64,000 nt of DNA from an uncultured Gemmatimonadales bacterium (GTDB taxonomy: Bacteria > Gemmatimonadota > Gemmatimonadetes > Gemmatimonadales > GWC2-71-9): NCBI GenBank assembly GCA_963842945.1, contig CAWJIM010000018.1, forward strand, positions 32,001 through 96,000. The letters run 5' to 3'. A program made the translations under genes and the position numbers. Positions 25,782-32,057 of this stretch are shown here, one piece after another (positions within the stretch are counted from its first letter, which is position 1; every line of letters starts with the position of its first letter). The notes beneath the pieces are model-generated. The model was given only the letters and a program-made list of their open reading frames with translations. It did no database searches and was not told the DNA's origin.

Positions 25782-26167
25782 ACCAGGGTGGCGCCGGCCT
25801 GGGCTAACAACTCCCGCAACACCGACCGGTGGCAGCTCCGCTCGTCCTCACAGAAGCAGCCCATCGAAAGATTGACGTCGGCGCTGAGAGCGGCCAGAAG
25901 CTCGAGTATACGCGATGCGGGCGCCTGCGACATTTCAGACCGATATCGCCGGGCAAAGGTTTCCCACCGGCGGCCGGTCAGCGGCTGGGAGCGCGCCCAC
26001 TTGAGCAGTGCAGCACTGGGTGCCAGCTCCGGCAGCCACACGTCGTAGTAGTTCAACCGGGAATAATCGGCCTTGGCTACGCCGCGGGGAGGACGCCGCA
26101 CCGTACCCAGCCTGATGCCTTCCTCCGGGGCACGCGGGGATCCGAGCTGGACGATGCGAATGCCCAT
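25778..26167 (-). CDS. DUF488 family protein
   Basis: [26 protein letters not shown]. Confidence 0.85.
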
Positions 26168-26179
26168 GGTTGAATACGG

Positions 26180-27590
26180 CTAGAACCGGCTGACATCGAA
26201 GAAGACCAGCCGCCAGTCGGGAGAGTAATAGAGACTCGCTATCACCCTCGTTTCGGGTCCCTTCCCTATCGCATAACAGGCGCGCGCAACCGGCGAGGAA
26301 AGCCAGCTGATATTTCGGCCACTGACATTGTCGCAGCCCAGCGATTGCCAGCCCTCTATCGGTCCCAGCTCCTCGCTGAGCTCGCGCCGGGACGACGGAG
26401 ACAGAAATTGCTGCAGTCCGGGTGTAGTCACAGCTGTGTCGGCCGCCTTGGCCACCCGGGCCAGCACCTGCTCGTCTCGAATGGGAGGTCTCGGATCCGG
26501 TAGCGGCGCGCTCAGCCGGTGAGGCGGAGTGAGTGCCGGCTCGAAGAGCCCAGCGATTCCTTCCGCGAGAGCGCTCGGCTGTGCCTGCGCCAGATTGGCC
26601 AGCGCAATCACGGTCAGGCCGTACTCCGGGTACCGATAGATCGCGGTCTTGAAACCCTGCCAGGAACCGGTGTGACCAATCCGCGGATGCCCCCGCTGCG
26701 GCGTGAGGTCCCAGCCGAATCCGTAGGGATACCGGCCGCCGCTGTTCAGTCGAACCCGAGACCAGGCGAGCTGCAGCGCCGTCGAGTCCGGGACCCGAAG
26801 GTGATCCAGCGAGTGCGCCCATTCCACCAGGTCGTTGATGCTCAGGTACAAGCGAGCCGTCGGCCGTCGTGTTGAGGGAGGGCGCCACCCAGTCCTGGTT
26901 CTTGAGCTCGCCCTTGACCAGCTGGTATCCGGCGCTGCGGTTGGGCACGATGTCCGCCTCGGAGATGATCCGGGTGGTGCGCATCTCGAGGGGACCGAAG
27001 ATCAGTTGCTGCAGAACGTCGCCGTAAAACCGGCCGGTCACCCGATGAATCAGGACCCCCAGGAGGAGATATCCCGTGTTGCTGTAGGACCAGCGATCAC
27101 CCGGCGGGAAATCCAGGGGCTTCGAAGCCGCGAACTTCACCAGCTGGTCTTCGGTGTAATCCTTTCGGTAGTCGAACGTGGAATCGGTGTACTCGGCCAT
27201 GCCCGAGGTGTGGGTCAACAGATGCCGCACGGTGATGTCCTTCCATGCGGCGCCTCCCTCCGAAAGCCATTTGCTGATCTTGTCGTCCAGGCTCAGGCGC
27301 CCCTGCTCTGCCAGCATCACGACCGCGGCAGCCGTAAACTGCTTACCCAGAGAGCCTGACTGGTACAGTGTGCTCTCGCTGGCCGCTACCTGAAGCTCCA
27401 CATTTGCCAGGCCGTACCCGCGCCGGAGCAGAACACTGTCGTTCCGCACGACGGCGATGGAGACGCCGGGGATGTGCTGCCGGCTCATCTCGGTCGTGAC
27501 GTACCGATCGACAGCGCTGAGAGCAGATTGCTGTCCCGCGACGGAGCCCCATGGCACCAGCAACAGGGCAACGACGAATGGTCGAGTCAA
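26180..27590 (-). CDS. Serine hydrolase, class C beta-lactamase-like (frameshift near 26850)
   Basis: SLGK, LLTHTSG, YSNTGY, GHTGSW. Confidence 0.88.
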
Positions 27591-27594
27591 CGGC

Positions 27595-28113
27595 TCAGGC
27601 CACTCCTGCGGCGGCGGTCCGAGACCGGCGCGCGTATGACATGGGAGACTTGCCCAGCTGCCGGCGGATGAACCCAATCTGGCCCAGATGATAGGAGTCA
27701 TGCTGGACCAGGAACGCTACCATGCCCAGCCGGGTGGTGTCTTCCGCCAGAAACCGTTGCGCCGTTGGCTCCGCCAGCTCGGTAGTAGTCAACCGGTCGA
27801 GTACCGATTGCAGATGAGCGCTCACTCCCGCCCACGCCCAGCGGATCTCCTCCAGGCTGGGCCATTCGGTGATGTCGTCCATGCTCCGCACATCGGCGAG
27901 GTAGTGGGCAATGGGATTGACCAGGGTGTGTCCCAGACGTGCGACCAGGAAATGCCTCGAGTCCGTGAGGTGCTCAGCCAGAAAGGTGATGCTGTTTCCT
28001 CCGGCTTCGAGTCTCCGTTGCGCTTCGCTGTCGGAGAGTCCTTCGAGGCAGTTCAGCAGCAGATCCGTGTTGAGATCATATAGTGCGGCGAGTGGCCTGA
28101 CTTGTGGCTCCAT
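27595..28113 (-). CDS. DinB family protein
   Basis: [21 protein letters not shown]. Confidence 0.88.
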
Positions 28114-28189
28114 GGCGCCTCCTCGTGCAGCGGGCCGTTCGGCGTAAAATACACGCCCTTGTCCCGGTCCAGCGACGGGTCCGACAACT

Positions 28190-28297
28190 GCTCACCACGG
28201 AGGCACGGAATGCACGGAGGTAGCACGGACTCCTGGTTCAGCGTAGGAGTCGTTTGATCCCAAAGGGCAAGATCTCGACATTGAAATATCAAACAAC
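28190..28297 (+). repeat. Left arm of inverted repeat around GxxExxY gene (4x CACGG in outer 53 bp)
   Basis: 28190-28242 matches revcomp of 28651-28703 at 46/53 with no gaps; gapped similarity continues inward. Confidence 0.88.
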
Positions 28298-28600
28298 AGT
28301 CCCGAGGACACTGTCCCGCAGGCGCATGTCGGTCATCAGCTGGGACGAATGGATAGGCAGGAGGTTTCTCGACCGATTTGATTTCGACGATTACGGCGTT
28401 CTCCACCAGCATATCGATGATATAGCCCTTCGGCAGGGTGGACACCCTTGTATTCTATGGGTTGCATCACCTGGCTCTCGTCGAGATTCCCCTTAGGTCC
28501 ATCTCTCGGCAAAGACACGTCTCATAGCTCGATTCCAGAAGGCCCGGCCCCAGATGCCGGTGACACTACATGCGCCTGCCCGAATGTCTTTGGAGTTGTT
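28238..28600 (-). CDS. GxxExxY (PD-(D/E)xK-type) protein, heavily frameshifted
   Basis: Pieced frames: [64 protein letters not shown]. Confidence 0.85.
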
Positions 28601-28703
28601 GGATTTCGATGCTCGCAGATCTTCCTGCTTTGGAAATGAAACGACTCTTAGCTGAACCAGCAATCCGTGCTCCTTCCGTGTCTTCCGTGTCTCCGTGGTG
28701 AGC
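28595..28703 (-). repeat. Right arm of inverted repeat; extra partial copy at 28713-28727
   Basis: revcomp GCTCACCACGGAGACACGGAAGACACGGAAGGAGCACGGATTGCTGGTTCAGC. Confidence 0.88.
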
Positions 28704-28805
28704 TTTGTTAGTGTGCTTCCGTGGTGAACAACTTTGTTTACCTTAAGCCCGTGCCCAATCCTATCGAGGAACACCAAGGAGCTGGTGGGCAGTCGGAGGA
28801 CCGGG

Positions 28806-29302
28806 ATGTTTCGTAGGAGCCAGGCTGCCGACATTCTAACCGGGGGCGTGGTCGCCGGGACGCTCGACATCACCTACGCCTGCGTCTTCTGGGCGCTCAA
28901 GGCCGGCGTTCCCCCGCGGCGCATCTTTCAGTCGGTCGCTGCCGGACTGTTGGGGCCAGCCAGTTTCGAAGGCGGAGCGGCGACCGCCGCGCTGGGGCTG
29001 GTGCTCCACTTCTTCATCGCAACCACGATGTCGCTGGTGTACTACATCGCCGCCGGGCGCTTCCCGGTGCTCGTGCGCCGGGCTTTTCTGTGCGGCGCGA
29101 TCTACGGTCTTCTGCTCTACGCGGTGATGAACTACGTGGTGGTCCCGCTCTCCCGAGCCTCGCCCGGGCCCCGGGATCCGCTCTGGATCGGGCTCTCGTC
29201 CTGGTCCATATGTTCCTGATCGGGGTGCCGATTGCGCTGATCGCTCGGTCGGGCCGTAGCGCTGTCCGGACTAGCCGATCTGGTTCGAGGGTTCCAAGTT
29301 GA
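28806..29302 (+). CDS. 4-TM membrane protein (frameshifted near 3' end)
   Basis: AGTLDI..A, FQSVA.GLLG, GL.LHF, MNYVVVPLS, HM..IG.PI. Confidence 0.75.
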
Positions 29303-29423
29303 TGAAGCCATCCTCTGCGGAAGGCCTAGGCGATTATCCCGGCCTTGAAGGCCAGGTGGCCCGCACCGAGCAGCACGATCTCCGACACCTCATGGTCCAG
29401 CGACAGGACCTGGCAGGAGCCCC

Positions 29424-30840
29424 GTGACCTCTCTCGGCACCAGCTTCCTGGAGCAGGTGAACCAGGCCTTCAATCACGCGGCCACGTTCACCCACCACGA
29501 CCCCACCCTGCTCGCCAACATCCGCGAGTGCAAGAACCTCTTCTACACCAGCTTTCCCATCAAGCGCGACGACGGCCGGATCGAGGTGATGCACGCCTGG
29601 CGGGCGGAGCACAGCCACCACAAGCTCCCGACCAAGGGTGGGATCCGTTACGCCGACAACGTCGATGCCGACGAGGTGCAGGCGCTCGCCGCGCTGATGA
29701 CCTACAAGTGCGCTCTGGTGGACGTGCCCTTCGGCGGGGCCAAGGGCGGGATCCGGCTCAACCCCAAGAAGTACTCGGTGGACGAGCTGGAGCGGATCAC
29801 CCGACGCTACGTCTTCGAGCTGGTGCGGAAGAACTTCATGGGCCCGGGGCTCGATGTCCCCGCCCCGGATGTGGGCACCAGCTCCCGGGAAATGGCCTGG
29901 ATCGCCGACACCTACACCCAGCTCCGCCCCGGCGAGCTGGACGCGATGGGCTGCGTCACCGCCAAGCCGGTGAGCGCCGGCGGGATCCGGGGCCGCACCG
30001 AGGCCACCGGCCGCGGGGTCTTCTTTGGCACCCGCGAGTTGGTGAGCGTCGCCGAAGACATGAAGGCGCTGGGGCTCAGCCCCGGCATCGAGGGCAAGCG
30101 GGTGGTGGTGCAGGGACTGGGCAACGTCGGCTACTTCGCCGCCAAGTTCTTCCAGCAGGCAGGAGCAGTCCTGGTGGGACTGGCCGAGTCGGAAGGCGCG
30201 ATCGCCAACCCCAAGGGACTCGATTTGGAGAAGGTGATGGCCCACCGCCTGGAGCGGAAAAAGCTCACCGATTTTCCCGGCGCCACCAACCTCGCCCGGA
30301 GAGAGGATGCGCTGGAGCTGGACTGTGACATCCTTATTCCCGCAGCCCTCGAGCGGCAGATCACGGCGGAGAACGCCGGCCGGGTCAAGGCGAAGATTGT
30401 GGTCGAAGCGGCCAACGGTCCCACCACTCCAGAAGCGGACAAAATTCTGGATCAGCGGAACGTCATGGTCATCCCCGATGCCTACATCAACTCCGGCGGG
30501 GTCACCGTCTCCTACTTCGAGTGGGTGAAGAACCTGGGCCATGTCCGCTTCGGCCGGATGCAGAAGCGCTACGAGCAGGCCTCCTACGGCCGGCTGCTGC
30601 AGGCAACGGAGCAGCTGACCGGCAAGCACTTCACCCCGGAGCAGGTAGCGCTGGTGACCCACGGGGCGAGCGAGGAGGATCTGGTCAATTCGGGGCTGGA
30701 AGAAACGATGATCGGCGCCTATCACCCGATCCGCGAGGTGTGGAAGCAGGAACCCGAAAGAAAACCTCCGGATCGCGGCGATGATCGTGGCGATCGACAA
30801 GGTGGCGATGAGTTACGAGCAGCTCGGGATATTTCCCTAG
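29424..30840 (+). CDS. gdhA: Glu/Leu/Phe/Val dehydrogenase (glutamate dehydrogenase); frameshift near C-terminus
   Basis: KGGIRY, VPFGGAKGG, DVPAPD, QGLGNVG, EAANGP, GGVTVSYFEW. Confidence 0.92.
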
Positions 30841-30844
30841 GCGA

Positions 30845-31327
30845 ATGAAGTGCTACCTCGCAATCGTCTTCGCTTTCGGTAGCGGTTTCGCCTTTCCGGT
30901 CGCTGCGCAATGGCAGGCTCAGGTCTCGCCCGGGACTCGGGTGCAGTTGCGGTTGCCGGAGGCGCAGTATCAGGCCGGCCCGAAGGGACAGTTCATTCGC
31001 GGTCGCGTCACCCACCTTGCGGGGGACACGCTTTACCTCGCCGTGACCGACAGCCTGGGTCCCCTCGCCATTCCTCGCACCTTCATCCAGAAGCTCGAGA
31101 TCAGCCGGGGCGTTCCCTCCCGCGGCATCAGCGCCCTGCAGCGAGGCTTGATGGGTGCAGTGCTGGGAGCGGCGACCTTCTATGTCGTGACAAAGCTTGA
31201 CTCCGACGGGCAGGACGACTCCGGAGACGCCGCTCTCATTGGAGGCGCCATCGGTCTGGGGCTGGGAGGCCTGACCGGTGCGCTCTGGCCCCGCGAGCGG
31301 TGGAAGCGAGTGCGTCCTGCGTTCTAG
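30845..31327 (+). CDS. Hypothetical exported protein with glycine-zipper C-terminus
   Basis: Signal peptide; GA.LG/GG.IG.G.G motifs; ERW terminus. Confidence 0.7.
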   Translation: MKCYLAIVFAFGSGFAFPVAAQWQAQVSPGTRVQLRLPEAQYQAGPKGQFIRGRVTHLAGDTLYLAVTDSLGPLAIPRTFIQKLEISRGVPSRGISALQRGLMGAVLGAATFYVVTKLDSDGQDDSGDAALIGGAIGLGLGGLTGALWPRERWKRVRPAF

Positions 31328-31331
31328 GACA

Positions 31332-31374
31332 CTCACCACGGAAGCACGGAAGGCACGGAGGTAGCACGGACTCC
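31332..31374 (+). repeat. Solo copy of the CACGG repeat
   Basis: 41/43 identical to 28191-28233; starts 5 bp after a stop codon. Confidence 0.9.
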
Positions 31375-31502
31375 CTCGCGAAAGACGGTTACCGGTTGAC
31401 CGCTGCCACCCGGTAGGATCCCGTTCCCCCTATAAAATTGGTCGACTAGTGGATCACGAGGCCCCATGGCATCTTGGAGCATCGACCATCTCCGAGGATA
31501 CC

Positions 31503-32057
31503 ATGCTCCGCTTCGCCAGCGCTCTCCTTCTCACTCTGCTCCTCACCACGCGAATCTCGGCCCAGGGTCCGGGCACCAAGTTCGCGGGTCTCATCGGCGG
31601 AGCAACCCTGAGTGACATCTCCAACCTGCCTGGAGTCGGGGACGACCGCTGGGGCGGGACCGCCGGCATCTTTGGCGGAGTCAACGCGGGGCCGACCGCC
31701 GTGACCCTGGAGGCCAACTGGATCCAGAAGGGCGGCGGCGACACCAAGCTGAGCTATATCGAGTTTCCCCTCACCATAGGCGCCATCTTGGCGCCGGAAG
31801 GGAAAACCTACCGGGCGCGGGTCTACTCCGGGGTCAGCTTCGGCTTCAAGGTCGATTGCAACTGTGAGAACGCCAAGGGCAGCGAGTGGGGCTGGCCGCT
31901 GGGCCTTCAGATCGCCAAAGTGACCAATACCGGGAAGTTCTTCGGCTTCGACGTCAAGTACACCTGGCCCCTATCTGACGCGTTCGAGTTCGCCGAGGCT
32001 CACAACCGGGTGTGGAGCTTCCGGCTCATGTTCGGCAAGGCAGTCGGGCCGTCGTAG
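31503..32057 (+). CDS. Outer-membrane beta-barrel (PorT-like) protein
   Basis: Signal peptide; E..W.QKG, L.YIEFP; terminal beta strand. Confidence 0.7.
   Translation: MLRFASALLLTLLLTTRISAQGPGTKFAGLIGGATLSDISNLPGVGDDRWGGTAGIFGGVNAGPTAVTLEANWIQKGGGDTKLSYIEFPLTIGAILAPEGKTYRARVYSGVSFGFKVDCNCENAKGSEWGWPLGLQIAKVTNTGKFFGFDVKYTWPLSDAFEFAEAHNRVWSFRLMFGKAVGPS

Follow-up and report, generated by a model that had tools for sequence, protein, structure and literature searches.

We describe a putative partnership between a small nuclease-family enzyme and the DNA repeats that flank its gene. In the window, the whole 64,000-nucleotide stretch of Gemmatimonadales DNA that was analysed, a GxxExxY gene that is broken as assembled lies between inverted arms made of short tandem words. 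Since such arms recur with and without genes in many bacteria and follow the gene's lineage, we propose that the enzyme likely recognizes and cuts its own arms and spreads them, with host repair copying, deleting or flipping them; we assign this reading a probability of roughly 0.58. The window element is best explained as one copy, placed recently and broken in the assembly, of an element that is widespread. If the reading is correct, it would give a concrete substrate to a large, phylum-spanning family of unknown function, provide a built-in specificity contrast between AG-word and AT-word clades, explain a repeat family that exceeds 100 arms in certain genomes, and mean that nuclease-plus-repeat partnerships have arisen independently on a third protein fold. 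A sequence- or structure-specific nuclease of ~120 residues could also serve as a tool. The window copy, damaged or mis-assembled, is a poor experimental specimen; its contribution lies in orientation flips and in an arm-bounded rearrangement. The features of the locus are as follows.

27595..28113, minus strand: DinB-family neighbour gene, host context
28178..31437: block made up of the element, a DUF1440-like gene, a Glu/Leu/Phe/Val dehydrogenase gene, a glycine-zipper gene and the solo arm
28185..28242, plus strand: left arm, with a clade-typical outer end and four CACGG units; its ungapped 53-nt part is 28190-28242
28238..28565, minus strand: GxxExxY (TIGR04256/PF13366) coding remnant, with a stop at 28238-28240, frameshifted, start unrecognizable
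28243..28329: 3' end of the gene, which prolongs the inverted repeat, with gaps, by pairing with 28568-28650
28568..28650: copy of the gene's 3' end in reverse, rich in gaps; in homologues the leader and first codons lie at this place
28651..28703, minus strand: right arm, with four CACGG units
28713..28730, minus strand: extra half arm, outside the right arm
31332..31374, plus strand: solo arm, oriented like the left arm and 95% identical to it over 43 nt; it stands at the far junction of the rearranged block

An earlier note, made from the sequence of this DNA, had described a 514-bp unit bounded by 53-bp inward-facing repeats with four CACGG units each, and both its size and its repeats are borne out: 28190-28242 and 28651-28703 pair at 46 of 53 bases (87% complementary) without gaps, and the CACGG units of the left arm are spaced 8, 9 and 11 nt apart. 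Folding of 28180-28735 gives z = -10.5 against 100 shuffles. The same note put the inverted repeats at ~110 bp. At this locus the repeat does extend beyond 53 bp, reaching ~140 bp at 78% with many gaps, but the length does not hold as a trait of the family, whose arms measure about 30-45 bp. The half arm at 28713-28730 and the solo arm at 31332-31374 come on top of what the note describes. The hexamer ACAACT is present on both sides at the positions given, yet it is not a target duplication, because its left copy belongs to the usual outer end of the arm, overlapping the AACTGC found ahead of the arm in further copies of the window gene's clade; the left arm's outer end is common to L071, L073, L077, L193 and L194. 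A promoter scan found none.

The strongest evidence that arms and gene belong together comes from the family as a whole. We collected 223 loci, dropped 13 partial genes and 29 with short flanks, and kept 150 after redundancy removal (<90% identity). Flanking inverted repeats scoring at least 15 surround 110 of these 150 genes, compared with 4 of 492 shifted control windows; the other 40 genes score below 15. The arms consist of tandem CRCRRA(G/T/A) words, mostly 8-11 nt apart, and a Bacteroides record has the same layout. The words also sort with the protein: on a quick tree of 120 columns, all 42 AT genes fall on one side of a branch with SH-aLRT 97, opposite all the AG (64) and AA (5) genes (111 labelled genes; 39 of the 150 carry no label), a sorting that is partly built in, because the arms are linked to the gene and the sample comes largely from two clade-specific queries. 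Thus both the flank enrichment and the co-variation of repeat with protein that the earlier note had named as checks are found. Both word clades occur in the genus, and the genome of the window (G000) holds arms of both kinds, with 15 AG/AA-type and 3 AT-type arms by a strict-pattern count.

Across the phylum, arms concentrate where the gene is. The gene is found in 55 of 151 genomes, mostly with one to two matches and at most 11. At least five strict arms occur in 26 of the 55 gene-bearing and 3 of the 96 gene-free genomes, and at least ten in 20 and 2, respectively; these counts include kin and are not independent. In total, gene-bearing genomes carry 976 strict arms and gene-free genomes 40. 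Twelve of the 55 gene-bearing genomes have none, and three genomes in which the gene was undetected are armed all the same (G190 with 14 arms, G185 with 10 and G068 with 5). Five genomes (G238, G210, G025, G104 and G178) carry 76-165 strict AG-type arms each.

The named protein matches that rank highest for this DNA come from Gemmatimonadales assemblies. Within G000, no CACGG-type gene other than the window gene was found. Contig C24 holds an intact sister gene with CACAGAG arms, the left of which encodes the N-terminus; this copy scores 141.6 bits against TIGR04256 (cut-off 35) and 139 bits against Pfam PF13366 (cut-off 22). A partial GxxExxY gene on C19 belongs to another clade. G000 also has CACGG arm pairs that enclose no gene; there are four, measuring 153-204 bp, and over 40-45 nt their best-matching arms share 87-95% identity with the window arms. 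The interiors of two of the four are clearly self-complementary beyond the arms, and a search for interiors derived from the gene or its leader found none, with best scores of 25-27, near background.

A reading at the level of RNA, or of a passive hairpin, would have the arms pair in the transcript, for expression control or processing like that of an intervening sequence, and would leave their spread, flipping and loss to host recombination. It is in keeping with the closing of the whole gene into one stem by its arms, with the C24 left arm being read as N-terminus, with outer ends that are fuzzy (complementarity fades over several bases) and with genomes that are armed without the gene. It leaves unexplained, however, both the concentration of arms in gene-bearing genomes and why the word follows the protein clade, and an Rfam scan of 27900-31700 gave no meaningful match; we consider it quite unlikely. 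The window element lies between protein genes and has no Rfam match, unlike the ORF-bearing rRNA intervening sequences, which sit within an rRNA gene and are cut out of the RNA.

The protein itself points to a nuclease. Among 105 sequences, V28, G35, E38, Y41, D78, E87, K89 and R130 are invariant and H98, Q101 and Y105 nearly so (Q101 and Y105 at least 90% conserved), and none of the invariant or near-invariant columns is a cysteine. The E..D..ExK pattern and QxxxY-like helix make up what we take to be a Cas4/RecB-type motif. A structure model (pLDDT 92.6) finds its best fold match in Cas4 SSO0001 (PDB 4ic1; Foldseek E 6.9e-4; Z 7.8, rmsd 3.3, 98 residues), although this Z is tied with those of other PD-(D/E)xK folds, and a fold match below Z 8 may reflect only a common arrangement. 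The fold matches listed are all PD-(D/E)xK, with the Holliday-junction resolvase Hjc (Z 5-6) under the others. Both the model and the invariant E38, D78, E87 and K89 agree with the earlier assignment to PD-(D/E)xK, and on this basis we regard the protein as a Cas4/RecB-like PD-(D/E)xK core and a predicted nuclease. The PADLOC Cas4 model matches 15 of the 105 members weakly, a PDB sequence search returned one insignificant match (E 0.79), and a dimer prediction scored 0.00. Cas4 has a four-cysteine Fe-S cluster. The GxxExxY protein, unlike Cas4, has ~120 residues and no invariant Fe-S cysteines, and the neighbours scanned at the window locus are not cas genes; CRISPRone has called a GxxExxY gene cas4, according to the accessible text of bioRxiv 10.1101/2021.01.26.428298.

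We propose that the GxxExxY protein would act on the arms as a metal-dependent nuclease, probably recognizing them when single-stranded or when extruded as a hairpin or cruciform. Breaks at the arms would be repaired by recombination or template switching, and this repair would give rise to gene-less hairpins, deletions, inversions and neighbouring rearrangements without target duplication. If the enzyme acts in trans, each protein clade would keep its own repeat word, and in G000 the window gene would be the partner of the four gene-less CACGG pairs and of the solo arm at 31332. Even without a GxxExxY enzyme, inverted repeats can be flipped or deleted by host recombination.

Comparison with relatives bears on how the window copy came to its place. 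The genus was represented by 103 genomes, and in five relatives among them the dinB side has a match of 85-89%. Three sequences (G087, G011 and G105:C25) diverge from the window at 28177 and rejoin it at 31438-31465, passing from dinB to a beta-barrel gene with neither arm nor GxxExxY gene; G105:C10 and G081 have other DNA at the dinB site, and the G050 contig ends before it. The element is thus in none of the relatives whose dinB site was visible, which is the absence from sister genomes that the earlier note had said to look for. In the window, the DUF1440-like, dehydrogenase and glycine-zipper genes precede the barrel gene, and an arm marks each junction, the two being direct copies, whereas in relatives the glycine-zipper gene (78% identical) comes after the barrel gene and in G118 the dehydrogenase gene directly follows it. 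Because gene order differs in this way, the 3.2-kb block has been rearranged in the window, and we infer that the arms caused the rearrangement.

One gene-less copy (G000:C19:237k) offers a cleaner comparison: it is absent from G087 as an exact 195-bp piece, the ends of which are asymmetric and show no duplication. This single clean empty allele could be a loss, because G011 has related arms at the same site; G081, G050 and G105:C33 have an AT-word hairpin in the same gap. G000 and G011 are filled at a second site, where four other genomes lack full arms. At the L004 site (L171, L172, L175 and L173), G000 has a CACGG hairpin, G011 a doubled one, three other genomes an AT-word hairpin and G087 nothing, and this intergenic gap is an apparent hotspot for both repeat clades.

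Such presence and absence between sister genomes, together with inward-facing terminal repeats and shorter gene-less derivatives, is also what a classical insertion sequence or MITE would give, with terminal inverted repeats and a target duplication, moved by the GxxExxY protein or by another transposase such as a Y1 enzyme. Against this, flanking direct repeats occur at 11 of 70 elements, no excess over shuffled sets (mean 8.4, maximum 15), and the empty allele shows no duplication, which together rule out a target duplication; moreover, the only Y1 transposase gene in G000 has no such arms within 1.5 kb. The classical reading is already largely refuted, and we regard it as very improbable.

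Evidence that the enzyme's gene moves or turns comes from orthologous sites. Between the same flanks, the gene is flipped in L072, L073, L074 and L032 relative to L071 (=L306) and L309, with an outer junction common to L071 and L073, and a second orthologous flip between the same flanks separates L193 and L194 from L077. At the site of L010, L012, L015, L295 and L303, a more distant GxxExxY gene (L304) lies in the opposite orientation, which is either a third flip or an independent insertion. The window's protein clade occupies several different neighbourhoods. Movement must be slow, since many copies are syntenic: 132 loci fall into 66 neighbourhood clusters, some with more than 10 members. 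For this reason the description of the unit as a minimal selfish element is only partly supported, since many copies occupy long-shared orthologous sites and the activity of the enzyme is a prediction. Viral contigs and GenBank phages contain no GxxExxY homologue, and a plasmid collection yielded 8 records, all typed non-mobilizable.

At one shared site, the gene differs between G000 and G087 at 32 of 52 four-fold sites and neighbouring ORFs at 3-29%, a tentative sign of gene replacement that was not repeated at another site and that draws on an ORF list including shadow frames. At the C24 site, L001 and L162 have GxxExxY genes 75% identical in amino acids between host ORFs that are mostly 88-99% identical, hinting that the gene may have been replaced in place there. 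At G000:C19:426884-427223 only a decayed single arm is present; in G105, G081 and G054 this site has a gene from the same clade as the window gene.

The protein is under purifying selection: pN is 0.06-0.29 and pS 0.46-0.80, with pN far lower in 17 of 17 pairs. Strong purifying selection, long residence at orthologous sites and a low gene number (one to two matches in most gene-bearing genomes) beside as many as 165 arms would all suit a domesticated host tool, in which arm cutting tunes recombination or DNA uptake nearby and repeat spread is a side effect; SsnA in Neisseria transformation, as the accessible text of PMC11893778 presents it, would be the precedent. The patchy presence of the gene (55 of 151 genomes, with up to 11 matches), its broken copies in several relatives and the scatter of one clade over several different neighbourhoods make such domestication unlikely in our judgement.

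The claim that the 514-bp unit holds a GxxExxY gene stands for the motifs and falls for the reading frame. The GLLESSY motif and the second motif (D..E.K) match TIGR04256 and PF13366, and they lie in different frames. With stops read through, the locus scores 59.3 bits against the curated cut-off of 35; one fragment reaches 30.8 bits and another lies at the Pfam cut-off of 22. An intact frame of ~130 amino acids is absent as assembled, and the gene as assembled is unable to make protein. In a frameshift-aware alignment, the same six frameshifts appear against each of five intact homologues, with no in-frame stops. Differences by codon position are distributed 26/6/60, like those of intact pairs (25/9/52); because of this pattern and the lack of stops, consensus error fits better than decay, and judging by sequence the six frameshifts are rather more likely to be such errors than marks of decay. 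Much of the damage to frame and start is probably an assembly error. The G105 copy also has six frameshifts and the G081 orthologue is intact; of five other broken copies, four have a single frameshift and the fifth an in-frame stop. Single-base indels also occur in host genes of the window (a beta-lactamase-family hydrolase, the DUF1440-like gene and the dehydrogenase gene; 25935-27591, 29197 and 30784), and public contigs have an extra base at 29197 and 30784, which points to assembly error there.

The inner part of the inverted repeat is peculiar to this copy. Beyond ~45 bp the repeat scores 66 here and 10-18 in 10 homologous elements, none of which shows the ~140-bp extension. The 5' inner segment scores 66 against the reversed 3' end of the gene and 18 against a homologue's 5' end, so that 28568-28650 may be a real snap-back or an assembly artefact such as a misread hairpin. 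We simulated a mixed-orientation consensus (10 noisy reads with 0-50% of them flipped, a majority consensus from MAFFT, and three repeats for each of two homologous elements), a simple model other than real assemblers; its scores reach at most 24 against the observed 66 and so lend no support to such an origin of the 140-bp repeat. None of four public sequencing runs covers the element's core (28264-28551), where the frameshifts would have to be checked.

This uncovered core, the indels in neighbouring genes and the gap-rich inner repeat would all be expected if the entire feature were a fold-back or misjoin of the assembly, and nanopore errors at inverted duplicates are documented, as far as the accessible text of PMC7229812 goes. 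Yet the 40-50-bp arms match those around intact homologues located at other sites, as well as those of gene-less copies in the rest of the genome, and an artefact can cover the inner extension and the frameshifts at most; as an account of the feature it has very little probability.

Among known systems, the nearest precedent for a nuclease that cuts its own flanking repeats is SsnA with NTS, of the Ssn nucleases with NTS/SRM repeats (Chenal et al. 2025, PMC11893778). In the accessible text of that paper, the nuclease Ssn is encoded by a small gene that stands alone and has its own repeats next to it, on both sides in 42% of homologues; these repeats are dispersed genome-wide in homologue-specific variants, and the authors liken the architecture to an insertion sequence. 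GxxExxY genes resemble this arrangement, with cognate repeats on both sides at the 110 genes counted above. They differ in that Ssn is a GIY-YIG enzyme (cd10448) and GxxExxY a PD-(D/E)xK protein with a match to Pfam PF13366 only; that NTS is itself a ~30-bp hairpin, whereas the GxxExxY arm is a non-palindromic 7-base tandem that pairs only with the opposite arm; and that cutting of single-stranded DNA is demonstrated for Ssn (PMC11893778) and a hypothesis for GxxExxY.

The likeness to REPIN/RAYT systems, REPtrons and TIRtrons (PMC3116915, PMC6006769 and PMC3733652, as far as their accessible text goes) lies in intergenic inverted doublets that form long hairpins, a repeat flavour for each type of enzyme, an excision footprint that is asymmetric and many gene-less copies per gene. 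However, RAYT and TIRYT are Y1 HuH enzymes and GxxExxY is PF13366, the Y1 gene of G000 being without arms; REPs are palindromes with a GTAG/GTGG foot, in contrast to tandem CRCRRA(G/T/A) words; and REPtrons are reportedly immobile as a unit, while one GxxExxY clade is found in several neighbourhoods and in both orientations. A class of short tandem repeats beside HuH genes does not appear in the accessible text of PMC6006769. The analogy of nuclease and cognate repeats to RAYT/REP drawn in the earlier note gains from enrichment, co-variation and sister-genome absence, and loses its target duplication, its 110-bp arms and its intact gene. Compared with a classical insertion sequence or MITE, GxxExxY elements share terminal inverted repeats, gene-less derivatives and presence/absence polymorphism between close genomes, and differ in having no target duplication, fuzzy outer ends and a non-DDE enzyme.

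By analogy, our best reading is that the system would work like Ssn/NTS or RAYT/REPIN and, by enzyme fold and repeat type, belong to neither. The protein is a member of PF13366 (PDDEXK_3) and TIGR04256 (GxxExxY); PMC3424549 lists PF13366 as of unknown function with multiple transfers and, in its accessible text, does not mention flanking repeats. The literature covered for the family names and the repeat words, largely open-access main texts, does not link the family to repeats, and GxxExxY with its cognate repeats is a real and apparently unpublished variant of the nuclease-plus-cognate-repeat theme. A bolder version, which we hold tentatively and think doubtful, would make GxxExxY the third independent class of repeat-breeding enzyme after HuH RAYTs and GIY-YIG Ssn: Cas4-like, word-specific nucleases of ~120 residues that cut paired heptad arms. 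They would shift, invert and replace their own gene and leave no target duplication; in many phyla they would populate single genomes with up to about a hundred gene-less arms, and they would reorder neighbouring host genes, the 3.2-kb block between two direct arms being an example.

The loci L002 (G000:C12:5163-5369) and L003 (G000:C6:6393-6593) represent the same host locus twice, with flanks 96-98% identical and a related but diverged gene-less element in each; the bin may contain two strains. A palindromic motif (AACAGCACACC and its complement) recurs in the interior of gene-less elements, both AG-type and AT-type (G000:C20:2877-3150, L004 and L002) and may be a separate nested repeat family. 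Another palindromic repeat, with GTCACCCTGA-type ends, is present in G000 (C19:638900-638970), and in G105 a repeat of this GTCACCCTGA type (L185) fills the gap where G000 has a CACGG element.
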